Below, piece after piece: positions 2,775-59,599 of a DNA stretch of 64,000 bases. Below the pieces are notes generated by a model, which was not told the DNA's origin, made no database searches, and worked only from the letters and a program-made list of their open reading frames with translations. Both the position numbers and the translations under genes were made by a program. The number at the start of each line of letters is the position of its first letter. The first letter of the stretch is position 1. Source of the DNA: Rickettsiales bacterium (GTDB lineage: Bacteria > Pseudomonadota > Alphaproteobacteria > Rickettsiales > UBA998); assembly GCA_024304995.1 (NCBI GenBank), contig JAMWZD010000001.1, forward strand, positions 385,472-449,471. The letters run 5' to 3'.

Positions 2775-4589
2775 ATGCAGCAACGTATATTCTATATTCT
2801 GGTCACAGGCTGTTTGTTACTTGCCCACCCAGCTCATGCGCTCATCTGGCCGCTCAGTGTGTTCTTTGATCCATCTGTGGTGGATTATGATGTGACCTTC
2901 ACCAATATTGAAGATGAACTGGTAGAAGATTACACATTAGAGACTTATGCACGCGAAGCGATAGACCCGAAAAACCCACCGCAGGATGCAGAGAGCCTGC
3001 GAATTGTCAGCGGCGTGATGGCAGACAGAGTTCGCAAAAAGCTGATTTCCGAAGCCTATTATGACGCAACCGTATCCGCATTTCTGAAAACAGAAGATGA
3101 TGAAGGGGAAACCACCAAACCAGAAATGGTGTTTAGCGTGGTAACAGGGCAGCGCTACAAAATTGTTGAAAGTGAGATTAAATGGAAATCAGACCCGCTT
3201 GCATTAAACACAGAAGATATATTTTTGAAAAAAAATGTGCCTGCTACATCTGAAAATGTGCTGGAAAATAAAAATAATTTAGAAACCGCACTGGAAGAAG
3301 AATTTTGCCTGCTATCCTACACCGTGGAACCAAGACTCGTTTTAGACAAGCTCGATGGCGCTGCCAAATTGCGCTATCGCATTGAGCATGGCGGGCGAGC
3401 TGACTTTGGAGCATTAAGTTTCACAGGTGATGATGGCATTTCCGAAGAAATTCTGATGAAATCCATCTCCTGGAAACAGGGTGAGTGTTTTTCACAGAAG
3501 AAACTGGATAAGGCGCAGACATCCTTACTGCAAACACAGTTAATTGCCTCTGCCAATATTGAAGTGGCCGAAACACCCAATGAACAGGGCGAAGTGCCTG
3601 TTACAATAGACATTACAGAACGCCCGCATCGCACCATTACCGCAGGAACGAGTTTTGGTACGGATGAAGGAATTGCCGTGAAAACAGGCTGGGAACATCG
3701 CAATTTTACAGGCAATGCAGACAGGCTGAATGTTGATGCCCGCTGGTCGCAACTGAACGCCCAGCTTTCCACCCGTTATACTATTCCCTATTTCCTGCGG
3801 GATGATCAGAATTTCTCTCTTGCTGGCACGATTGAACGCCAGACAACAGACACATTTGACTCGCTCTCGGCGTCCGTTCTGGCAGATATTGATCGCAATA
3901 TTAATGAATATCTGGTTGTTGGCGCTGGCGGAGGCTTCCGTTTTTCTTCGGTGGAAGAAGATGGCGAACCGACCGAAAATTACGGATTACTCTATTTTCC
4001 TGTTTATGCTCAGTGGGATTCGCGCGATAGCTCAGTTGATTCGCGCAAAGGACTATATGCCCGCGCTTCCGTATCCCCTTATGTGGATGTGACGGGGCAG
4101 GATGTGGCGTTCACCAAACTGGAGGGGGAAGCCAAAACCTATCTCACGCAGGAAAAATGGAAGTGGAAACCAACGCTGGCATTACGCGCACTTTATGGGC
4201 AGATTAACGGGGCTGACGTAAATGACGTGCCTGCGGATCTGCGTTTCTATTCAGGCGGAGGTGGCTCTGTTCGCGGGTATAATTTCCGTGCCATTGGTCC
4301 GATAGATGATGAAGGCAACCCAGAAGGTGGCACAATTCTAACTGAATTGACCAGTGAATTGCGATTGCGCTTTACAGACACTATCGGCGGTGTTGCTTTT
4401 GTGGATGCGGGAACCGTGTATAATGCAGAAGCACCCGATTTTTCTGAGGATTTGTTTCTTTCCGCGGGTCTGGGCGCACGTTATTACAGCCCGATTGGCC
4501 CTATCCGTTTCGACGTGGGAGTGCCTCTGGATGAGGTGGAAGATGACACACCCTTTGGCGTATATATCAGCATAGGACAGGCATTTTAA
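2775..4589 (+). CDS. tamA: Outer-membrane BamA/TamA-family protein (translocation and assembly module A)
   Basis: 604 aa with a signal peptide (LLLAHPAHA) and a surface-antigen D15-like beta-barrel ending ...YISIGQAF (C-terminal Phe). Translationally coupled (TAATG) to the DUF490 gene. Confidence 0.8.
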   Translation: MQQRIFYILVTGCLLLAHPAHALIWPLSVFFDPSVVDYDVTFTNIEDELVEDYTLETYAREAIDPKNPPQDAESLRIVSGVMADRVRKKLISEAYYDATVSAFLKTEDDEGETTKPEMVFSVVTGQRYKIVESEIKWKSDPLALNTEDIFLKKNVPATSENVLENKNNLETALEEEFCLLSYTVEPRLVLDKLDGAAKLRYRIEHGGRADFGALSFTGDDGISEEILMKSISWKQGECFSQKKLDKAQTSLLQTQLIASANIEVAETPNEQGEVPVTIDITERPHRTITAGTSFGTDEGIAVKTGWEHRNFTGNADRLNVDARWSQLNAQLSTRYTIPYFLRDDQNFSLAGTIERQTTDTFDSLSASVLADIDRNINEYLVVGAGGGFRFSSVEEDGEPTENYGLLYFPVYAQWDSRDSSVDSRKGLYARASVSPYVDVTGQDVAFTKLEGEAKTYLTQEKWKWKPTLALRALYGQINGADVNDVPADLRFYSGGGGSVRGYNFRAIGPIDDEGNPEGGTILTELTSELRLRFTDTIGGVAFVDAGTVYNAEAPDFSEDLFLSAGLGARYYSPIGPIRFDVGVPLDEVEDDTPFGVYISIGQAF

Positions 4590-7500
4590 TGAAACAGTTT
4601 TTCAGATTTTTACTTGCTACATGTCTTTCGGTTGTTCTGTTTCTGGCAGGACTTATTGCCCTTGCTTACGGTGCATTGCAAACACCTTACGTGAAAGACC
4701 ATCTGGCAGAAATGGCAAGCAACCTTGCGAGCAATGAACAACAGACCATTCAGATTACCGATATTCAAGGACATGTGCCGTGGGATTTCTCTGTTCCCTC
4801 CATTACCATAGCAGATGCAGACGAGGTATGGCTGCGCATCAATGCGCTTCGCATAGACTGGCATCCTCTGGATTTGCTGAAATACACACTGCATATTGAT
4901 CAGCTTACTGCAGATGAAGTGATCATTTCACGCGCGCCCAACGCGCAGGAGCAGGAAGAACAGGCTGAAAGCACACCGCTGACCTCCCTGCCCGACCTTC
5001 CTACGCTGAATATCGGCACAATAAAAAGCCCGCATATTGCGCTTCCAGCTGCATGGATGGGGGGTAAAGATACGCTATGGACACTGGAAATTACTGGAAC
5101 GGACATAAATGCATTGCAAGGGGCATTGCGCACTAAAGACACACAGGCAGATACATCTCTCACTTTTCTGGCGGATGTAGAAGACGCAATAACATTAGAT
5201 ATCAAATTGCAGGATGATGCTGGCGGAGTGATCAACCGCATTGCAAATTATCCCGAGCAACGCCTTTCTGCCAGCATCACTGCTGAAACCAGCAATAATC
5301 TGGCAACCGCAGGGCAGGCAGTAATCACATTGGGTGATACTCAGGCGCTGGACGCAACATTTTTAGTTGCAGATGTTATTACACTGGAAGCAAATGGCAC
5401 ATTGCCAGAATTTGTTCGCCCGCCTTTCACATTTGATTCACACGACTGGACACTGAATCTGAATGCGCAACAAAATGATGCGTTGTGGACAGTTAGCGAT
5501 GCTAAAGCAACATATGGGAACGCAATGCTCAAAGCTGCAGGCGGAGTTAATCTGGAAGATGAAACATTTGCTTCACCTGAATTACTGCTGAGCATTGACG
5601 ACCTATCTCCTTACGCAGAAAATATAAGCGGTAATCTGCGTCTGTCTGCTGTTATTGACGGAACATTTGATGATACTAATGCGCAGATTAATCTCTCCAG
5701 TGACAGCATTAAAACAGGAGATACCCGACTTGCTGCACCTGCTGCAAAATATTCGCTGGCTACATCCTTAAATGCATGGCTGGAAGAAGGCTGGGCGGCA
5801 TCTGACTTTGCGTTGCAGGCAGGCACTGCACTGAATGACCAGAATATCAGCCTCTCTGCCAAAGGAGAGACGCAGCAAAACCGTGTGATTGCAATTAATT
5901 CACTGAAAGCAACCACGCCTTATGCTACGGCGACAGGCACTTTATCTTATGGGCTGGAAAATGGTGCTATTAAAGCAGATATTAATGCAGACCAGCTTCG
6001 CTTAGCAACGCTGACAAATGGGCAGATAAAAGGCACGCTGAATGCCAATGCAAAGGCAGATGGCACACTGGAAAAACTGCCTGTATCCCTCAGCGCATCT
6101 GCAACCAACCTGCAGGGCTTGCCTGACGCTGTGTCGCATTTAATTGCCAATAGCGCCAGTCTGGATGCGAACAGTGTGATTACGCCAAAAACAGTTACTA
6201 TTGATAAGGCAGAATTGTCATCAGGCTCACTCAACGCCATTGTAAAAGGGGCAATTCCACTGGAGCCAAAAGATGCCCCTGCCCCGCTGACATTGTCTAT
6301 CACACATCCGAATTATGCTGCCATCAATGCCAGCACAGAAATGCAGCAATTGCCTGAAAAACTGGTGCTGCGTGACATTGTTTTTAACACGCAAGGCACG
6401 AAAGCAAGTGGCACATTGAACGTGATGCAGCCAAGCGGGTTGCTGGATGGAAATGTAAACATCAATAGTAGCAACATCGCACCTTTGCTTGCATGGGGCA
6501 ATATGCCACGTGCGGAAGGGGCTATGCGGGCGGATATTGCATTGAAAGCCAGCAAACAACAGGCATTCAATGCACAGATCAATGCGGATAATATTATTAT
6601 ACCCAAACAGCAATTAGCCATAGAAACACTCTCTCTTGATGCTTCCTCTCCAAATCTTTCACAACTGGATCAGATGAATATTGCCCTGCAAAGCAGTGAC
6701 ATTCGAAGCAATGATCTGCTCTTACAGACCTTGCAAGTGGCTCTGACACCCTATCAGAATGCCTCGGCATTTGATATTTCACTGGATGGCGCGCAAGCAG
6801 GAAAACCTGTAACATTATCCAGCACAGGTTTAATTGCGTCTCAGCAACAACAGACGGACGTTACATTAAACACGCTGAACGGAAAATATGACTTACTGCC
6901 GTTTGAATTGCAGCGCCCAACCGCATTATCACTGAATCAGAATAATATTACATTGCAGGATACATTGCTGAAGCTGGATGACGGCACATTGCAGCTAAGC
7001 GCACAAAAAACTGCGCGCACTGTGGAAGCGATGCTGAGACTCTCAGACATGCCGCTTTCACCATTGCTCAGCAGCGCAGGTGGTTCACTGCCTCCTGCCA
7101 TTGCTAATGCTACGATTGCAATAAATGGTGCGTCAGCAAAACCTGTTATCCAGACAGACGCAACAATCACTGCAGATATTCCAGGTGATGCACCAAATGC
7201 GAAGATCAATATCACCAGCAACTGGAACAATGCACAGCCTACCCCTGTGATCCGCAATGACATCAGCATGAGCATGAAACAAGAGGTGATTACGGGCAAC
7301 GTCTCTGTGCCTGCCAGTCTTTCCCTGCAACCTTTTGCGTTTAATATGAACGATAATGCACCGCTTGATGGCGCACTGACAGCAGATATGAGCCTGAACG
7401 AATTTGATGGTTGGACAAAACCGCTCGGACACCAGATTGCAGGACTATTGAAAGCAAATATGGCATTGCAGGGCACAGTGGCAGAACCAGACTTTAACGG

Positions 7501-9362: not shown

Positions 9363-9367
9363 TTGCT

Positions 9368-9441
9368 ATCATTCTGAACGTAGCGAAGAATCCTTGTTCA
9401 TCTGTCGCAGATAGTAATGTGATATTTCGCTTAATGTAACA
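9368..9441. repeat. Palindromic REPIN/MITE-like element, copy B (right arm degenerate/shortened)
   Basis: Left arm atcattctgaacgtagcgaagaatcc (9368-9393). Possible eroded right arm gtgatatttcgcttaatgtaaca (9419-9441), abutting the rlmE stop. Confidence 0.5.
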
Positions 9442-20806: not shown

Positions 20807-20846
20807 CGTTACCTGCCTTATTGCAAATCATAGTGTGGAGATATTC

Positions 20847-20969
20847 GTCATTCTGAAAGAGCCTTGAGCGCAGCCACCCGTGGGGTGCGCGTACATAAAA
20901 CAACTGAAGAATCCATGTCGCCGTATGTCTCGGGCGGTGAGATGGATTCTTCGCTGCGCTCAGAATGAC
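20847..20969. repeat. Palindromic REPIN/MITE-like element, copy C (long variant, left arm interrupted)
   Basis: Left arm fragments gtcattctga...gagcgcagc...tgaagaatcc. Right arm ggattcttcgctgcgctcagaatgac (20944-20969). Lies between trxB and the peroxiredoxin gene. Confidence 0.75.
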
Positions 20970-20974
20970 AGTTA

Positions 20975-27960: not shown

Positions 27961-28038
27961 GTCATATTGAGCGTAGCGAAATATCCAGAGACTCTTGCGC
28001 AAGCGGTGACATGGATTCTTCACTTCGTTCAGAATGAC
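27961..28038. repeat. Palindromic REPIN/MITE-like element, copy D (intact, 78 bp)
   Basis: Left arm gtcatattgagcgtagcgaaatatcc (27961-27986); right arm ggattcttcacttcgttcagaatgac (28013-28038); 26-nt spacer containing cttgcgcaag. Confidence 0.85.
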
Positions 28039-39518: not shown

Positions 39519-40454
39519 ATGAAAATCATCTCAGGCAATAGCAATCTTCCACTCGCGCAAGCTATGGCAGAACATCTTGGCATTGAATTAATGCAGGCGA
39601 ATATTCACCGTTTCCCTGATTCTGAAATTCGCATTGATGTGAAAGAAAATGTCCGTGGGGAGGATGTGTTTTTGGTGCAGTCCACCTCTAACCCATCGAA
39701 TGATCACATCATGGAACTGCTGATTATGCTGGATGCCATCAAACGCGCCTCAGCCCGTCGTGTGACAGTGGTGATTCCTTATTATGGCTATGCACGACAA
39801 GACCGCAAGCCAGGCCCCCGCACGCCGATTTCTGCAAAATTAGTGGCAAATTTGATTACCTCCGCCGGAGCAGACCGCGTATTGACGCTGGACTTGCACG
39901 CAGGGCAAATCCAAGGCTTTTTCGATATTCCACTGGATCATTTATATGCTGCACCCGTCATTGTGAATGATATTCGTGATAATTACGACACCTCCAACCT
40001 TATGGTCGTCTCTCCAGATGCAGGCGGCGTGGCACGCGCGCGCGCACTCGCAAAACGTATTGATGCGGACCTGGCGATTATTGACAAACGCCGCGAACGC
40101 GCCAGCGTGTCTGAAGTGATGAATGTGATTGGAAATGTTAAAGGGCGTGACTGCATCCTCTTTGATGATATTGTCGATTCTGGCGGCACGCTATGCAACG
40201 CTGCAAATGCATTAATTGAGCAAGGCGCAGCGAATGTATCCGCCTATATCACACATGGCGTGCTATCTGGCAAAGCAGTGGAGCTGGTCACCAATTCCAA
40301 ACTGAAAGAACTGGTTATTACGAACAGCATCAAGCCAACCGATGACGTAAAAAATGCGCACAATATCCGCGTTGTCTCCATCGCCAAATTGCTGGCAGAC
40401 GCCGTGCATCGCATCAGCGCGGAAACGTCTGTGTCTAGCTTATTTAATGATTAA
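39519..40454 (+). CDS. prs: Ribose-phosphate pyrophosphokinase
   Basis: [14 protein letters not shown]...[10 protein letters not shown]...[11 protein letters not shown]...[10 protein letters not shown] are the canonical Prs motifs. Confidence 0.95.
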
Positions 40455-41085
40455 GCAATGCGTTGCACTTGCAGTCATGTTCTTCATGGTTGCGTGCGCG
40501 CACAAGCCAGAACCATCTGCGAATCTCATTCAGCGTGATTGCAAGATTATTGCCCGCGCACCTTCTGCGGAAGCGGTGGATTTTAGCCAGCCTAATATGT
40601 GTTTGTCTTATATTTCTGGGTTGATAAGTGGTGAGCTGACTTCTTCAACCTATATTTGGGGATTTATCAGAAATATGGAAATGAATGGTGTCTATCAATA
40701 TGGTTCTGATACACCACATGATGAAAAGTTGGCGGAACATACAAAACTGTTCCTTTCTGATTTGGAGAAAGAAAAAAATGAACGATTTTGTATTGCTGGA
40801 GAGATTCGCACTATTATAGAAAATGCAGAGAACGCTGATGATAAATACATAGTATTTAAGGCTATAAGAATTATCTATTATCGGTTAGCTAAAGTATTAG
40901 CTTTAAGCTGGGAACTTGACAAAACACCACCTGACGGCGAAATCGATAATGAACATCTAAAATATTTCAGACACCACTTAGGCTATGCATTTACAAATAT
41001 TTACAATCACAGTATTTTCTGCAAAGCTCTAACTGGAGAATTAGAGCACAAATTTGAAGAAAATAGTGACCTGTTTAAGCACTAA
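40447..41085 (+). CDS. Putative lipoprotein, four-Cys family, paralogue 1
   Basis: ATG 40447 gives [17 protein letters not shown] (lipobox-like). Shares [39 protein letters not shown] with the next gene. Confidence 0.6.
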
Positions 41086-41091
41086 ATAATC

Positions 41092-41697
41092 ATGAAACAT
41101 TTTATCACTCTTTTAGCCTGCACCATGTTGCTTTTCAGCAGCGCCTGCACACCAAAGCCAGAACCATCTGCAAATTTGATTCAACGTGATTGCAAGATTA
41201 TAGCCAGCGCACCTTCTGCGCAGGATGTGGATTTTAGTCAGCCTAATATGTGTTTTTCTTATATTTCGGGGCTGATTAGTGGGGCAGCAAACTCAGCATC
41301 TCGCATTGGTTCGTTTATGGCGTTCCCCTATCACCTGCCTGCAGACACATTTAATCCAGAGGACGGTTCAAGCATACCCCCTAGCAAAGATGTGGTTGAC
41401 GAGCATAACCGCATTTTAAATGATTTAGAAACAGTATTCGATGAAAGCTTTTGCATCGCCCGCTATTTTGAAAAAGAAACTGAAAATAAACTCGAATATA
41501 ATGGAGACATTCGTTTCCTCAGACCTATCTACTATAAGTTAGCTAAAGTTTTGACTGCAATAGGAGATACGTCATTGATTGCAGAAAACAACGGAACAAA
41601 AGATACACAAGATGATTATCTCAAACCACATGCAAATTTAATTTTTAATCATGCATATGATTATCACTCTATTTGCGAAGCACTAAACAAATCGTAA
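41092..41697 (+). CDS. Putative lipoprotein, four-Cys family, paralogue 2
   Basis: MKHFITLLACTMLLFSSAC lipobox. Cys positions (RDC, NMC, FCIA, SICEA) are conserved with paralogue 1. Confidence 0.65.
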   Translation: MKHFITLLACTMLLFSSACTPKPEPSANLIQRDCKIIASAPSAQDVDFSQPNMCFSYISGLISGAANSASRIGSFMAFPYHLPADTFNPEDGSSIPPSKDVVDEHNRILNDLETVFDESFCIARYFEKETENKLEYNGDIRFLRPIYYKLAKVLTAIGDTSLIAENNGTKDTQDDYLKPHANLIFNHAYDYHSICEALNKS

Positions 41698-54121: not shown

Positions 54122-57004
54122 ATGAGCGCACAGACAGAATCCGCATGGGAACAATTTGCTGAGTCACAATATCTTTACGGCGCGAACAGCCTGTATATTG
54201 AAGAAGTCTTCAAACTTTACTCGGAAGACCCCGAGCAGGTGGACCCTGAATGGCGCGAGTTTTTCAAGAATTTTCAGGATGGGCTGGAAGAACATGAGCC
54301 ATCCTGGGCGGAAGATACCAGCGGCATTGTCGGCGTACTCGACCCTGAAGAGAAAAAGGAAATTGCTGCAAAAGAAAAGCAAATCCGCGCGAAGGATGAC
54401 ACCGCCATTTTGCACTCGATTCGTGCTTTGCAGCTGATTCATGCATATCGCGTGCGCGGGCATTTGAAAGCGAAGATTGATCCGCTGGAGAAATCTGACG
54501 ATAACCGCAAAAAGCAACATCAGGAATTAAACCCACTAAGCTATGGTTTCACGCGGGAGGATTACACGAAAGAGATTTTCCTCGGCGGGACGCTGGGTCG
54601 CCAGAGTGCGACGCTCAACCAGATTTTGAACATTCTGCAACAGACCTATTGCCAGACGATTGGTGTGGAGTTTATGCATATTCAATATCCTGATCAGAAA
54701 GCATGGATTCAGGAAAAATTTGAGAAAATGCAGGGCAAACCGCATATTTCACCAAAAGATAAGCGTGAGATTCTGGCAGATTTAATTGAAGTGGAAGCGT
54801 TTGAAGAATTTCTGCAAACGAAATATCCTGGCATGAAGCGCTTCTCCATTCAGGGGGGGGATGCAATGCTGCCTGGTCTGCAATCCACCATCCATACGGC
54901 TTCCCGCCTCGGAGTGAAGGAAATTGTGATTGGGATGCCGCATCGCGGGCGCATGAACGTGCTGACGAACATCATGAAAAAGCCCTATCCTGAAATGTTT
55001 TCACTTTTCCACGGCAACATGGATTTCCCTGAAAGCGTGAACAGCTCTGGTGACGTGAAATATCATATTGGTGTCTCAGCTGACCGTGACATGCCTGACG
55101 GCAAAAAATTGCATTTGTCACTCACCGCCAACCCGTCACATCTTGAAGCAGTGAATCCTGTGGTGTGCGGAAAAGTGCGCGCGAAGCAGGATCAGCGCGC
55201 GGACAAGGAAAAAGAAGAAGTGATGGGCTTAATGCTGCATGGCGATGCCGCCTTTGCAGGGCAAGGCGTTGTGCCTGAAACGCTCTCACTTTCAGAGCTT
55301 CGCGGATACCGCACTGGCGGTTCATTGCACATTATTGTGAACAACCAGATTGGTTTCACCACCAGCCCGAAATTCTCGCGCTTCACGCCTTATCCGTCTG
55401 ATGTGGCGAAAATGGTGGCTGCGCCTATTTTCCATGTGAACGGGGAAGATCCTGAAGCGGTGGTCTATGCGTGCCGTCTGGCAACGGAGTTTCGCCAGAA
55501 ATTCAAGCGTGATGTGGTGGTGGATATTTTCTGTTATCGTCGATATGGGCATAATGAAGGGGATGAGCCGATGTTCACTCAGCCTTTAATGTATCAGGAA
55601 ATTAAAGCGAAAAAGTCCCCTGCGCGGATTTATGCAGACGTGCTGGTCTCTCAAGGAGTGATGAAAGAAGAAGATGTGAAAGCCGAATTTAACCGCTTTA
55701 ATGAAATGTTTGAAGCGCAGTTTGACACCGCACGCGACCATAAGCCAAACAAGGCAGACTGGCTGGAAGGCGCTTGGTCTGACATGAAAGAAGCGGAAGA
55801 TCACGGCAAACGCACCTCACCTGATACGGGAGTAGACAAAGACGTGCTGAAAAATCTTGCCACGCAGCTGGGCAAAATTCCGCAGGACTTTAATGTTAAT
55901 AGCAAGGTGAAACGCATCATCAAAGCGCGCACTGAAGCCGTCTTATCTGAAGAAGGGATGGATTGGGCAATTGGTGAGCATTTAGCATTTGCCACCTTGC
56001 TCAATGATGGGTATGGCGTGCGCCTGAGCGGGCAGGATTCGCGCCGTGGCACATTCTCGCATCGTCATTCCGTTTTTATTGATCAGGAAAATGAAAAGCG
56101 ATATACACCGCTGAACCATCTGAAAGGTGTGAAAAAGAAATATGAGGTGATTGACAGTTCACTATCAGAATTTGCCATTCTGGGCTTTGAATATGGCTAT
56201 TCTCAGGCAGAACCCAACGCGCTGACCATTTGGGAAGCCCAGTTTGGGGACTTTGCCAACGGTGCGCAGATTATGATTGATCAGTTTATTGCCTCAGGTG
56301 AAATTAAATGGCTGCGCATGTCTGGTCTGGTCATGTTGCTGCCGCACGGCTATGAAGGGCAAGGCCCTGAACATAGCTCCGCGCGACTGGAGCGTTTCCT
56401 GCAACTTTGCGGGGAAGATAATATGCAGGTGGTGAATTGCACCACACCTGCCAACTTCTTCCACGTGCTGCGCCGTCAGTTGCACCGCAAATTCCGCAAA
56501 CCGCTGATTGTGATGACACCAAAATCGTTGCTGCGTCATAAACGTGCAGTCTCCACTCTGGATGATTTTGCCACAGGCACGAAATTCAGCAAAGTATACG
56601 GTGAAGTAAGTGCGTTGCAAGCAGACAAGGACATCAAAAAAGTGATTTTGACGAGCGGAAAGGTCTATTATGATTTGCTGCAAGCACGTGAAGATGCGGG
56701 CATTGATGACATCGCCATTGTGCGCGTGGAACAATATTATCCGTACCCTGCTGCTCAGGTGGAAGAGCAACTCTCGCGCTATCCAAACGCAAAAGTGGTT
56801 TGGGTACAGGAAGAGCCGAAAAATATGGGCGCGTGGACGTTTATTGAGCCCTATATTGAACAGTCTCTCACCACAATAGGACGCGAAAGCTGCCGCCCAA
56901 CCTACGTGGGTCGCAAAACCGCCGCCTCCCCCGCCGTGGGTTATCTGAAGATTCATGAACGTGAGCAGGCAGCATTGGTGAATGAGGCGTTGGGGATTAA
57001 ATAA
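54122..57004 (+). CDS. sucA: 2-oxoglutarate dehydrogenase E1 component
   Basis: ATG 54122 gives MSAQTESAWEQFAESQYLYGANSLYIEE. Later motifs include MPHRGRMNVL, LHGDAAFAGQGVV and LLPHGYEGQGPEHSSARLERFLQ. Confidence 0.95.
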   Translation: MSAQTESAWEQFAESQYLYGANSLYIEEVFKLYSEDPEQVDPEWREFFKNFQDGLEEHEPSWAEDTSGIVGVLDPEEKKEIAAKEKQIRAKDDTAILHSIRALQLIHAYRVRGHLKAKIDPLEKSDDNRKKQHQELNPLSYGFTREDYTKEIFLGGTLGRQSATLNQILNILQQTYCQTIGVEFMHIQYPDQKAWIQEKFEKMQGKPHISPKDKREILADLIEVEAFEEFLQTKYPGMKRFSIQGGDAMLPGLQSTIHTASRLGVKEIVIGMPHRGRMNVLTNIMKKPYPEMFSLFHGNMDFPESVNSSGDVKYHIGVSADRDMPDGKKLHLSLTANPSHLEAVNPVVCGKVRAKQDQRADKEKEEVMGLMLHGDAAFAGQGVVPETLSLSELRGYRTGGSLHIIVNNQIGFTTSPKFSRFTPYPSDVAKMVAAPIFHVNGEDPEAVVYACRLATEFRQKFKRDVVVDIFCYRRYGHNEGDEPMFTQPLMYQEIKAKKSPARIYADVLVSQGVMKEEDVKAEFNRFNEMFEAQFDTARDHKPNKADWLEGAWSDMKEAEDHGKRTSPDTGVDKDVLKNLATQLGKIPQDFNVNSKVKRIIKARTEAVLSEEGMDWAIGEHLAFATLLNDGYGVRLSGQDSRRGTFSHRHSVFIDQENEKRYTPLNHLKGVKKKYEVIDSSLSEFAILGFEYGYSQAEPNALTIWEAQFGDFANGAQIMIDQFIASGEIKWLRMSGLVMLLPHGYEGQGPEHSSARLERFLQLCGEDNMQVVNCTTPANFFHVLRRQLHRKFRKPLIVMTPKSLLRHKRAVSTLDDFATGTKFSKVYGEVSALQADKDIKKVILTSGKVYYDLLQAREDAGIDDIAIVRVEQYYPYPAAQVEEQLSRYPNAKVVWVQEEPKNMGAWTFIEPYIEQSLTTIGRESCRPTYVGRKTAASPAVGYLKIHEREQAALVNEALGIK

Positions 57005-57019
57005 GCTCCCCACGCCCCC

Positions 57020-57045
57020 GTCATTCTGAACGAAGTGAAGAATCC
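57020..57045. repeat. REPIN/MITE-like element copy F, left arm
   Basis: gtcattctgaacgaagtgaagaatcc, 15 nt after the sucA stop. IS200 sequence starts immediately after it. Confidence 0.8.
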
Positions 57046-57703
57046 ATAAGATAATAAGGAACTACCGCCTATGGCGGTACGGCTAGCGTAGTTATACAAA
57101 TTATGCAAGAAACCTCTTTGCTTGAGCCATTGGAGTGGTTTGAGGAATCAAACAAAGAGGTTTTTATTATGTCAGAAATTAGAAGATTATCTCACAGTCG
57201 CTGGGAATGCAATTATCATGTGGTATTTATTCCAAAATACCGCCAGAAACGGATATATGGCGATGTTCGCAATGAATTACGTCAAGTGTTTCATGATCTG
57301 TGTCACCGTAAGGAATGTCGCATTATTGAAGGTCACCTGATGTCCGACCATGTGCACATGCTTATCAGCATACCACCGAAATATTCTGTAGCACATATAG
57401 TAGGTTACTTAAAGGGGAAGACCGCCCTACATTTAGCGCAGAAATATGGACGTAGGAGGAAATATCGAGGCTATAGTTTCTGGGCGCGAGGGTATTTTGT
57501 ATCTACTGTAGTTGCAGACGAACAGGTCGTTAGACGTTACATTCGCAATCAGGAGAAAACGGACAAGCAGTACGACCAAATGTCCTTGTTCACTGAACCC
57601 AATAATAGTAAGTAACAAAACCACTTCCAGTGGTGCAAGCAAAGCGTTACAGACCTCCACCTCTGGTGGAGGTCATTGAATCTTTCGGTTTGTTTTAAGC
57701 TGG
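57046..57703 (+). mobile_element. IS200-type insertion sequence (IS200/IS605 family, tnpA only); ends approximate
   Basis: The Y1 HUH transposase gene is flanked by subterminal hairpins taccgcc-tat-ggcggta (57063-57079) and gacctccacc-tct-ggtggaggtc (57652-57674). No tnpB. Confidence 0.75.
57169..57615 (+). CDS. tnpA: IS200/IS605 family Y1 (HUH) transposase TnpA
   Basis: From ATG 57169 (GAGG 8 nt upstream): SHSRWECNYHVVFIPKYRQK...SDHVHMLISIPPKYSV...GYLKGKTA...FWARGYFVSTV. Close in pattern to Salmonella IS200 TnpA (HTRWNCKYHIVFAPKYRR...DHIHML...FWCRGYYVDTV). Confidence 0.9.
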   Translation: MSEIRRLSHSRWECNYHVVFIPKYRQKRIYGDVRNELRQVFHDLCHRKECRIIEGHLMSDHVHMLISIPPKYSVAHIVGYLKGKTALHLAQKYGRRRKYRGYSFWARGYFVSTVVADEQVVRRYIRNQEKTDKQYDQMSLFTEPNNSK

Positions 57704-57708
57704 GAGAT

Positions 57709-57736
57709 GGATTTTTTGCTGCTACCTTTAAATGAC
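57709..57736. repeat. REPIN/MITE-like element copy F, degenerate right arm
   Basis: ggattttttgctgctacctttaaatgac, preceded by gagat exactly as in copies C and E (gagatggatt 10-mer shared). About 20 of 26 matches to the copy C right arm, with a 2-nt indel. Confidence 0.55.
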
Positions 57737-57787
57737 GGCATGAAGAATAATCTTTTGCGTCTTTTACTTCTGATTGTATGATACGGG

Positions 57788-59599
57788 GTGATGAGTGAAC
57801 AAGCCAGCATAGCCAATATTGATATTCAGCCAGATGACCCTGAATGGCTGGTGCTAAAGAAATTTTGTGAGACATTTGATTCTAAACGCATGAAAGAAAA
57901 ATACGCCTGTTCTAAAACTCACAAAATACTTGATGATAATGCTTCTCGCAGAAACGGCTTTATTTCTTGGAATTTTGTATGCTTTTTTACTGTATCGAAT
58001 GAAGCGCAACAACGTATTGCTCCTGAACTAAAACGCTGGAGCCCTTGGCTTTATTCAATATTAGAAAATGTTCTAAATGACCCTTCATACCAAAATGATC
58101 TTAATAATTATTATAACTCATTTATAGATATTCGTAACAAAAGCTACACTTTGGATATGGCAATCTCTATAATTGAAGGAAAGCTTAATAAACATAGCTT
58201 AGATTATGAAATGCCACCGCTTTCACGAATATGCAATATAGAAACTAAATATTTATTTAAGGATGGTACACAGTTAGATTTTTCTGATTACATATTTTTA
58301 TGTGAATTAGGTTTTTCTGGCAACAAAAACAATCCCTATCGCGCCATAGAAGAAAAAAAAGAATCAAATATATTTAAAGCAGCGACGAAACATACCAAAA
58401 ATTTTAGTTTAAAACGCAATTACTGTTATGGTGGGATATATTTCGGTGTATGCGGATTTGAAAAGATAAATCTAAATGGTCTTCATACAACAAATCTTCA
58501 CTTTATATGCAATGAAGCTAACTATATAACGTTGGCTAATATCAAATGTCATTGGTTTAAGCACGAAACTGACAACACTAATAGTATAGATAAATTAGAA
58601 AAAACCGATATTCCTTTCTTATTTATACATAATATATCAAATAAATTTGAACATATAGATATATCTAATCGGCGCATTCGATTATCAATAGATAGTAACA
58701 CGGAAGTCAGAACGTTAAATTTCTTGAATGTAGTTATTGAGAATGACGTTCAATTTGCAAATTTAGAACTTGAGCACGCAACATTTAGCAGTGTTATATT
58801 TGAATCTGATTTTTCTTTTTTGCAAAACACCGTAGAGAAAACTACATACTTCAGGCATTGCAGCTTTAAAGAATCCTCTAATTTCAAAGGCAGTAAGTTT
58901 TCATGTAATGAACTAAATGAAAAATCATTATCCAATAGAGATGAATTGCTGTCTCCTTCTTTCATCAATTCAAATTTTCAATCGGTTCTAAATTTGAAAG
59001 ACACTAATTTTCATGCTCCTCCTCATTTTGAGGGAGTAGAAGCAGATTGTGTGTTATTCGATGAAAAGTCATCCTTCATCAACCACCCTAGCAAAGACCC
59101 AGAACTTGCTGCATCAGCATGGGCATCGTTAGTGCGGCTGGCAGAGCATACGGGCAATATGCGGATGCGTCAGTTATTTCACGCACGCATGATGGAAAAC
59201 GAAAAACGTATGGCAAGCGAAAAAAGTCATGGCTTTTTCTATCATGTATTTCGTATATTAGGAAGCGGCAGAAATACGCTAGTTCCTATAGCATTCTTGC
59301 TTTTGTCTTTTATATGCTTTGGATTGATTTATATGACAAGCTATCTTGCGATAACACCTGAAAAGATAGCGCCACTATATGCAAATGCATTTGATAATGG
59401 ATTTGCACTATCTATGCAGCACACCGCACCCTTCTTTCCAACTGAAAAAGCACTATTGAAAAATTTGCTTCTCCCCTTCAAAGAAAGTCCTATAAACTAT
59501 TTCATCAATTTAGCCCGCTTCGTTCAAACGATTCTCTCAATAGGCTGCATCTTCATGTTCGGTCTCTCCCTCCGCAACCGCTTCCGCATCAAAACCTAG
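57788..59599 (+). CDS. Degenerate pentapeptide-repeat (beta-helix)-like protein with C-terminal transmembrane helices
   Basis: 603 aa. The middle region has F/L-periodic repeats (VQFANLELEHATFSSVIFESDFSFLQNTV..TYFRHCSFKESSNFKGSKFS). C-terminus is ILGSGRNTLVPIAFLLLSFICFGLIY...ILSIGCIFMFGLSLRNRFRIKT. GTG 57788 or ATG 57791 start. AT-rich. Confidence 0.55.
   Translation: MMSEQASIANIDIQPDDPEWLVLKKFCETFDSKRMKEKYACSKTHKILDDNASRRNGFISWNFVCFFTVSNEAQQRIAPELKRWSPWLYSILENVLNDPSYQNDLNNYYNSFIDIRNKSYTLDMAISIIEGKLNKHSLDYEMPPLSRICNIETKYLFKDGTQLDFSDYIFLCELGFSGNKNNPYRAIEEKKESNIFKAATKHTKNFSLKRNYCYGGIYFGVCGFEKINLNGLHTTNLHFICNEANYITLANIKCHWFKHETDNTNSIDKLEKTDIPFLFIHNISNKFEHIDISNRRIRLSIDSNTEVRTLNFLNVVIENDVQFANLELEHATFSSVIFESDFSFLQNTVEKTTYFRHCSFKESSNFKGSKFSCNELNEKSLSNRDELLSPSFINSNFQSVLNLKDTNFHAPPHFEGVEADCVLFDEKSSFINHPSKDPELAASAWASLVRLAEHTGNMRMRQLFHARMMENEKRMASEKSHGFFYHVFRILGSGRNTLVPIAFLLLSFICFGLIYMTSYLAITPEKIAPLYANAFDNGFALSMQHTAPFFPTEKALLKNLLLPFKESPINYFINLARFVQTILSIGCIFMFGLSLRNRFRIKT

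Follow-up and report, generated by a model that had tools for sequence, protein, structure and literature searches.

The window, by which we mean the whole 64,000-nt stretch of DNA analysed, carries at 57019-57737 a pair of palindromic units in inverted orientation, with an IS200-group insertion sequence (IS) of 634 nt between them. The two units form a REP doublet, which begins 15 nt 3′ of sucA. The features of the locus are the following:

57002-57004: stop codon of sucA, the upstream neighbour of the doublet
57019-57046, plus strand: left unit of the REP doublet, CGTC-tagged, reading CGTC / ATTCTGAAC / loop gaa / GTGAAGAAT / CCA
57044-57047, plus strand: target and left cleavage tetranucleotide CCAT (REP tail CCA plus T), as judged by the empty-site comparison, the guide GGAA and the CCA(N) of relatives
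57048-57681, plus strand: IS200-group insertion sequence, 634 nt, delimited by its conserved ends and by scanning possible excisions against the empty site in a related strain (L114)
57058-57061, plus strand: predicted left guide GGAA, the 4 nt 5′ of where relatives have the foot of an 8-bp hairpin
57063-57079, plus strand: left-end (LE) subterminal hairpin TACCGCC-TAT-GGCGGTA
57112-57161, plus strand: 5′-UTR stem ACCTCTTTG / CAAAGAGGT, overlapping the tnpA ribosome-binding site AAGAGG
57169-57615, plus strand: tnpA, encoding a 148-aa Y1 HUH transposase of classical IS200 type
57620-57634, plus strand: small hairpin ACCACTTCCAGTGGT directly after tnpA, found in all close relatives
57652-57674, plus strand: right-end (RE) subterminal hairpin GACCTCCACC-TCT-GGTGGAGGTC, followed by TCATTGAAT to the IS end
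T57047 and 57682-57707, plus strand: remaining doublet spacer, 27 nt in total, equal to the spacer length of the empty orthologous site
57708-57737, minus strand: degenerate right unit of the doublet, TGGATTTTTTGCTGC...AAATGACG, with TGGAT tail and GACG head kept and the stem decayed

The IS starts directly 3′ of CCAT, and CCA(N) stands at the equivalent place in relatives. With an AT at either end, its junction can be shifted by up to 2 nt, and 57046-57679 and 57047-57680 would serve equally well. The 26 nt after 57681 end in GAGA, and the pentanucleotide gagat lies at 57704-57708. On rechecking, all coordinates of an earlier note on this DNA proved correct (left arm 57020-57045, LE hairpin, tnpA, RE hairpin, gagat 57704-57708 and right arm 57709-57736). 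The IS has no terminal inverted repeats and carries subterminal hairpins at both ends. The RE hairpin folds as DNA at -11.2 kcal/mol (z -4.6), and its core is identical in 9 metagenome loci. The 5′-UTR stem is also present in one relative (L085), with compensatory changes, and probably limits tnpA translation, as described for IS200. An Rfam scan returned three tRNAs only, and neither the repeat nor the IS ends were covered by any described RNA family.

The repeat is dispersed in the window, where 11 REP arms were found at 6 loci, 5 of them inverted doublets, all lying between long ORFs. With an arm profile made from eight arms, the arm under test being excluded, nine strong arms were detected in the window (E 2e-10 to 6e-7), plus one arm split by an insertion. 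The left unit reached E 3.5e-9 with a profile made without it, and its stem shows compensatory changes across copies. The left arm 57020-57045 is identical to the reverse complement of 28013-28038, where 0 matches are expected by chance. In intact doublets, 24-27 nt separate the CCA tail from the partner's TGG, in agreement with the approximately 26 nt between arms noticed previously.

Each unit is a small palindrome, ATTCT-GA-GC / loop / GC-GA-AGAAT, with a stem of 9 positions including a tandem G.A. The first two pairs do not vary (AU, UA in 10/10 arms), and standard pairs fill 91% of the pair cells across the ten arms. Compensatory changes occur in 3 of the 7 stem pairs (ATTCT/AGAAT, ATACT/AGTAT, ATATT/AATAT; GC/GC vs AC/GT). 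The covariation score of the stem was reached by 0 of 500 shuffles and collapsed in slid controls. Since the two partners of one doublet may differ while each keeps its own stem intact, selection acts on the unit hairpin. Single units fold weakly under standard DNA parameters (-0.8 to -1.9 kcal/mol, z about 0), so that the case for the unit hairpin is made by covariation and not by energy; a whole doublet (copy E) folds at -16.3 kcal/mol (z -2.5).

The head of the units is CGTC or TGTC in 7 of 10 aligned arms, with CGTT, TATC and CGTC in the others, the loop has 3 nt (4 in one arm; 5 if the closing pair is opened), and the tail is CCA in 7 arms and CTA, CT and CCT in three. By this CGTC/TGTC head, the A-T and T-A first stem pairs, the CCA tail and the arrangement in inverted doublets, the repeat falls within the super-family of CGTC-tagged REPs (Di Nocera et al. 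2013). Members are defined by a stem of 8-9 bp, a loop of 4-5 nt and the head CGTC (or TGTC/CCTC); they occur mainly in Alphaproteobacteria and "apparently lack a dedicated transposase" (PMC3733652). Set beside the four published CGTC families by description only, the window repeat has the same head, first stem pairs, CCA tail and inverted doublets of 24-27 nt, and is likewise extragenic, downstream of genes and in an alphaproteobacterial host. It differs by the tandem G.A mismatch in its stem and by a loop of 3-4 nt vs the published 4-5 nt.

The right arm is degenerate. Scored alone with the profile from the 8 other arms, it obtained 4.8 bits, which is not significant (E = 2.1 window-wide), and chance matches of this strength number 4-5 in 128 kb. 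It lies nevertheless on the expected strand and at the expected distance, and about 0.002 such matches are expected in the ~60 nt after the IS. The segment 57683-57740, comprising spacer and arm, aligns to the equivalent half of three intact copies with z = 3.5-4.7, scores that were matched by 0, 1 and 0 of 2000 shuffles; the copy E score was reached by 9 of 5000 random 58-mers of the window. In addition, this same degenerate arm stands at the orthologous site of the related strain L114. Thus, the right-arm similarity pointed out in the earlier note fails as a match on its own, and we accept the arm from its position and strand, the half-doublet alignment and the orthologous degenerate arm of L114.

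TnpA matched Pfam Y1_Tnp (PF01797) with 132.7 bits (cutoff 23) and NCBIfam transpos_IS200 (NF033573) with 146.9 bits (cutoff 55), while the RAYT model REP_Tyr_transpos (NF047646) gave 41.3 bits, below its cutoff of 80. Its PDB matches 2ec2, 2f4f, 2a6m and 2xm3 comprise Sulfolobus IS200-type transposases, IS608 TnpA and ISDra2 TnpA, and no RAYT chain was among them at E <= 0.01. The HVH motif and Y-x3-Q are intact in the translation. The protein had been described from its N-terminus as a classical IS200 TnpA and not a YafM-type RAYT, and its passing the IS200 model and failing the RAYT model bear this out. A RAYT-like class, 'IS200 Group 3', has been defined by Bertels et al. 2017 (PMC5581495); that TnpA scores so well with the core IS200 model, and that its relatives are multi-copy, speaks against membership in this group.

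TnpA is at best 86% identical to anything retrieved. Relatives with 70-86% identity (L001, L002, L085, L097, L103 and L104) have in common the LE hairpin, the RE hairpin followed by TCATTGA, the hairpin after the ORF and the 5′-UTR stem. The flanks differ among relatives whose LE and RE hairpins are conserved. As to copy number, two sequencing runs of one organism gave identical IS sequences. De Bruijn contigs begin or break exactly at the REP arm and cross both IS ends unbroken into the next gene, and the exact TnpA protein is recorded on one contig only, which indicates that the IS is probably single-copy in the source genome. It is probably a recent arrival. A single copy had been put forward as a RAYT-like trait; single-copy status fits the contig data, but RAYT-likeness does not follow from it. 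Relatives are multi-copy, as in L001, a 630-nt collapsed-repeat contig which starts at CCA and stops 2 nt past TCATTGAT, leaving no room for arms.

Whether doublet or IS came first can be read from empty sites. L114 belongs to a strain whose SucA is 96% identical and has the same layout at the orthologous site without the IS: the sucA stop is followed by CGTCATTCTAAGGCGAAGTGAAGAATCCA, a 27-nt spacer and TGGATTTTTTGCTGCTTTATAAGTGG. We compared every possible excision from the window with this empty site. Deletion of 57048-57681 gave the best colinearity, with 81% identity over 210 nt and no gain or loss, and left a spacer of 27 nt, equal to that of L114. The mdh-region loci of the related strains L110, L111 and L113 are either short of the end of sucA or rearranged. 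Among named relatives, those closest to the malate dehydrogenase encoded in the window (72-76% identity) come from alphaproteobacterial MAGs.

A second comparison is provided by the metagenome contig L104, where two doublets of another CGTC family, one empty and one occupied, are ~100 nt apart. The empty doublet reads ..GGCATCCAG ATCAAATTATAGGC TGGATGCC.., i.e. CCAG followed by ATCAAATTATAGGC and TGGAT. In the occupied one, ..GGCATCCAG, the IS, ATCAAATTATAGGC and TGGATGCC.. follow each other, i.e. CCAG, the IS and ATCAAATT; its 29-nt arms are 100% complementary and 646 nt apart. These data show that the doublet is older than the IS, that the right arm had decayed before the IS arrived, and that insertion was exact, directly behind the left unit's CCA(N) tail, without target duplication. 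The first of the two readings proposed earlier, insertion of the IS200 into the spacer of a pre-existing element, is thus established by the empty sites of L114 and L104.

IS608 reads its target tetranucleotide through a guide of 4 nt located 5′ of the left hairpin (GL AAAG with CL TTAC), and the same scheme operates at the right end (GR GAAT with CR TCAA) (PMC5934647). We applied the IS608 pairing scheme, in which guide base 1 pairs with target position -3, guide base 2 with -4 and guide base 4 with -1, to the window IS, its relatives and further families:

Window IS: guide GGAA (57058-57061), CC-n-T predicted, CCAT observed
L097: guide GGAA, target CCAT
L002: guide GGCA, target CCAT
L001, L103 and L104: guide GGAC, target CCAG
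L085: guide GGAC, target CCAA, an exception at the fourth base
Marinacidobacterales family, 11 loci (10 with an intact left end): guide TAAA, target TAAT
Rudaea family: guide AGTT, target CTAA
MFD01223 family: guide AGAT, target CTAA
Widespread 73%-identical IS (P0056): guide AAAA, target TTTT

The rule fits 6 of 7 close relatives and the 4 control families, which are multi-copy. The fourth bases of guide and target covary in 6/7 cases, GGAA or GGCA going with CCAT and GGAC with CCAG. By analogy with IS608 and from this covariation, we infer that GGAA pairs with CCAT. Fitting the rule at the right end gave no consistent pairing, and the right end was placed from the empty sites. The window IS would resemble IS608 and ISDra2 in inserting 3′ of a fixed tetranucleotide paired with a guide of 4 nt on the 5′ side of the left hairpin. 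It differs from them in having no tnpB, in the distance between cleavage site and guide (10 nt vs 15) and in its target, CCAT vs TTAC or TTGAT.

Association with REPs would follow from such a guide because it specifies CCAN, which is the conserved REP tail. The earlier proposal that the hairpin acts as a target thus holds roughly, in that the sequence read appears to be the 4-nt tail CCAT beside the hairpin, matched by the guide GGAA. The window contains 579 TCCA sites, of which 85 are outside ORFs, and REP tails account for 8 of the 34 ATCCA sites outside ORFs. Sequence preference together with selection against genic insertions explains much of the pattern. Since the tetranucleotide is not rare, the frequency of relatives at REP tails is not fully explained by sequence, and hairpin context, selection or both must add to the sequence preference.

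We then examined the wider distribution of the clade among JGI metagenomes, searched with the right-end core sequence, to which the loci found earlier were added. Close relatives of the IS were found in unrelated metagenomes at CCA tails of CGTC units, often within doublets. CCA(N) is the left flank in 7 relatives; the sequences up to the junction are TGTCATTATCGGACTTGATCCGATAATCCA in L097, CGTCTTTGCGAGCGTAGCGAAGCAATCCA in L103 and TGTCATGCCAGCGAAGGCTGGCATCCA in L104. A CGTC tail forms 4 of 7 left flanks, the exceptions being L085, at another hairpin ending in TCCA, L101, in a GTAG-like doublet, and L100, at a terminator. Beyond the right end, an inverted CGTC unit is present in 7 of 10 right flanks, at 14 nt in both L104 and L098, 21 nt in L002, 39 nt in L106, 44 nt in L099 and 93 nt in L103. 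A strict automatic finder placed a CGTC unit beside 3/7 left and 2/7 right flanks of the clade. For other IS200 clades, the same finder detected 0 CGTC units at 90 flanks on each side, and the background frequency is 2.7e-5 units per nt.

Arm types vary by genome (CGTC-type, GTAG-like in L101, unrelated in L085). The REP stems are wholly different between genomes, while the transposase and the end hairpins barely change. This is unlike cognate enzyme-substrate pairs and speaks for an absence of co-evolution. In the AAAA-guide lineage (P0056), the TTTT target is preceded by an intrinsic-terminator-like hairpin in 7 of 8 distinct sites with readable left flank. A search of plasmids returned only the sister lineage, adjoining T-tract hairpins in 2 of 3 cases, and no CGTC cases. 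The sites of the AAAA-guide lineage hint, short of proof, at a role of an adjacent hairpin in targeting.

We conclude that the IS200 very probably inserted at the CCAT of an older CGTC REP doublet by means of its GGAA guide, and that the transposase serves the IS and not the repeats. This tnpA-only IS200-group element landed in a pre-existing CGTC-tagged REP doublet, directly 3′ of CCAT, presumably through the 'peel and paste' mechanism by which the IS200/IS605 family moves as single strands. The 4-nt guide GGAA beside the LE hairpin would pair with CCAT, in the way that transposon DNA reads the target in IS608, and the adjacent hairpin may give extra help. The two 'arms' are the halves of the older doublet, pushed apart by the IS.

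A Y1 HUH gene between inverted REPs, apparently in one copy per genome, is also what a RAYT in a REPtron looks like, and the second reading proposed earlier was that tnpA is functionally tied to the repeat family. TnpA would then be the cognate enzyme of the CGTC REPs, domesticated or of dual use, which nicks REP tails and spreads the repeats. Besides the geometry and the apparently single copy in the source genome, such a link could draw on the IS relatives adjoining CGTC units in several unrelated metagenomes, as 0/90 copies of other IS200 clades do, and on the CGTC REPs described without a known transposase (PMC3733652). We regard it as quite improbable. The tnpA gene is absent from the same locus in L114, where the orthologous doublet stands with its right arm already decayed, so that the decay preceded the insertion. 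The protein is a classical IS200 transposase, not a RAYT by the curated model, and complete IS ends with conserved LE and RE hairpins of their own are kept, the element inserting as a discrete unit. Close relatives such as that of the 630-nt L001 contig are multi-copy IS, and sister lineages with another guide occupy terminator T-tracts. Furthermore, the REPs of the window are headed by CGTC and not GTAG, and RAYT-style covariation of enzyme and REP is absent, given that stems differ completely among hosts with near-constant TnpA and end hairpins. The 'REPtron-like geometry' is a by-product of target choice.

This REPtron look-alike is therefore an ordinary IS insertion, a clean negative dated by the empty site of L114. 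No tyrosine-transposase gene flanked by CGTC units was found by Di Nocera et al. 2013 (PMC3733652); the locus and its relatives are counter-examples, showing that tyrosine-transposase genes can be flanked by CGTC REPs. Such flanking can arise without a functional link, which calls for caution in screens for RAYT-like genes based solely on flanking repeats. We give only a slim chance to a related possibility, that the CCAN-guide clade, or a relative without IS ends, nicks every accessible CCA tail in single-stranded DNA and thereby moves, duplicates or erodes CGTC REPs; if true, this would supply the enzyme missing since CGTC REPs were defined in 2013.

The IS could also have landed neutrally in intergenic DNA, inside the doublet by coincidence and with no target relation to the repeat. 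A model using sequence only gives this about a one-in-four chance per tolerated insertion, in view of the 8 REP tails among 34 ATCCA sites, and the source genome probably holds one IS copy. Against these two points, the junction lies exactly at the tail and not elsewhere in the spacer, and the same junction recurs in L097, L103 and L104, with inverted CGTC units after the RE in L002, L098, L099, L104 and L106. Coincidence is likewise hard to reconcile with the 0/90 of other clades, with the low background of units and with the covariation between fourth bases of guide and target, and we consider it very unlikely. Finally, inverted arms around the IS in the window, L104, L085 and L101 could be taken for the terminal inverted repeats of a mobile unit larger than the IS, made of arm, IS and arm, with short doublets as its internal deletion derivatives, but this is scarcely credible: empty sites retain both arms and the full spacer without a scar, which we count as refuting, arm types differ among genomes, the L001 contig leaves no room for arms, and arms and IS end hairpins show no resemblance. 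A PATE-like origin of the REP doublets, as miniature elements derived from the IS, was also considered and rejected, since neither the LE nor the RE hairpin has anything in common with the arms.

Taken alone, the locus is unremarkable, an IS200-group element in a CGTC-type REP doublet, both kinds being already known. With the IS200/IS1541 group the IS shares a Y1 HUH transposase of ~150 aa, subterminal hairpins, a 5′-UTR stem over the ribosome-binding site, the lack of target duplication and a size of ~0.6-0.7 kb. It differs from described members in targeting CCAN and in being probably single-copy. What is modestly new is that, across genomes, an IS200 clade defined by its guide is linked to the CCA tail that CGTC REPs carry. 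Insertion into REPs is known for IS1397, ISKpn1, IS621, ISPpu9/10 and ISRm22 (Tobes & Pareja 2006, PMC1525189) and documented for the IS3, IS110, IS4, IS256 and IS5 families (PMC1525189); our literature search found no report of REP targeting by IS200/IS605 elements. As in these cases, the IS clade appears to recur at one defined REP position, with the doublets as putative landing pads. In contrast to them, it belongs to IS200/IS605, and its specificity appears traceable to DNA-DNA pairing between guide and tail. The REP hot spot would thus have a transparent cause, a 4-nt guide complementary to the conserved tail of the repeat, and the landing sites of IS200-group elements could be predicted by reading their guide.

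The association with inverted repeats was also seen among relatives of the window IS. Of the full-length relatives retrieved together with flanking sequence, the closest is the IS at locus L085 (TnpA 83% identity); it too lies between inverted repeats, at 4813-4878 and 5605-5659. These repeats (23 nt, 91%; 27 nt, 89%) show no relationship to the CGTC units, and the hairpin CTCCCCCC-TTGC-GGGGGAG occurs in each. At locus L101, another relative is located between perfect 15-nt inverted arms, GAAAATGTAGGTTGG, at 2722-2736 and 3429-3443. These arms constitute a GTAG-headed, REP-like doublet, so that landing in doublets extends beyond the CGTC class.

Sister IS200 lineages, with TnpA identities of 68-73%, were represented by the widespread P0056 IS (L087-L096) and by elements on Rhizobiaceae plasmids (L107-L109). 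Members of these lineages mostly lie immediately 3′ of a GC-rich hairpin with a T-run behind it, an arrangement typical of intrinsic terminators. Among the distinct P0056 sites whose left flank was readable, this held for seven of eight, and it also held for two of the three plasmid sites. The P0056 left guide (the 4 nt 5′ of the left-end hairpin) is AAAA, for which the predicted target is TTTT.

Solitary perfect palindromes, (T)TCAATGACCTCCACCTCTGGTGGAGGTCATTGA(A), were observed at two further loci (L102 1205-1230 and L105 608-633). Each has the sequence of the IS right-end hairpin, its stem extended, and lacks a neighbouring tnpA; they may represent stand-alone derivatives of the IS right end. 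A separate observation concerns L086, where about 80 residues spanning the HUH region are duplicated internally and in tandem in an IS200 transposase of 223 aa (5001-5672), which is adjoined by a group II intron reverse transcriptase.

Other REP units of the window were also found in altered form. In the doublet at 20843-20971, the left unit (20843-20919) is split in two (CGTCATTCTGAAAG + CTGAAGAATCCATG, about 45 nt of unrelated sequence between, agccttgagcgcagccacccgtggggtgcgcgtacataaaacaa), and its loop has received an insertion. The unit at 9364-9396 has no clear partner. Since only a short arm-like remnant, gtgatatttcgcttaatgtaac, is present about 35 nt downstream, unit and remnant together suggest a decayed doublet.

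The doublet downstream of sucA (57019-57737) adjoins a variable region, as seen by comparison with L114, the related strain with the empty site. Homology between the two stops about 45 nt past the right arm of the doublet. In the stretch beyond this point (57780-59599), the window encodes a protein of 602 aa whose function is unknown and which gives a weak pentapeptide-repeat match, and the corresponding place in L114 (3120-4153) a 334-aa PLD-like protein. Elsewhere in the window, two adjacent paralogous genes (40354-41697) have in common a segment of 140 nt with 86% identity (40492-40631 and 41143-41282), the copies being spaced by 651 nt; this arrangement is a local tandem gene duplication.
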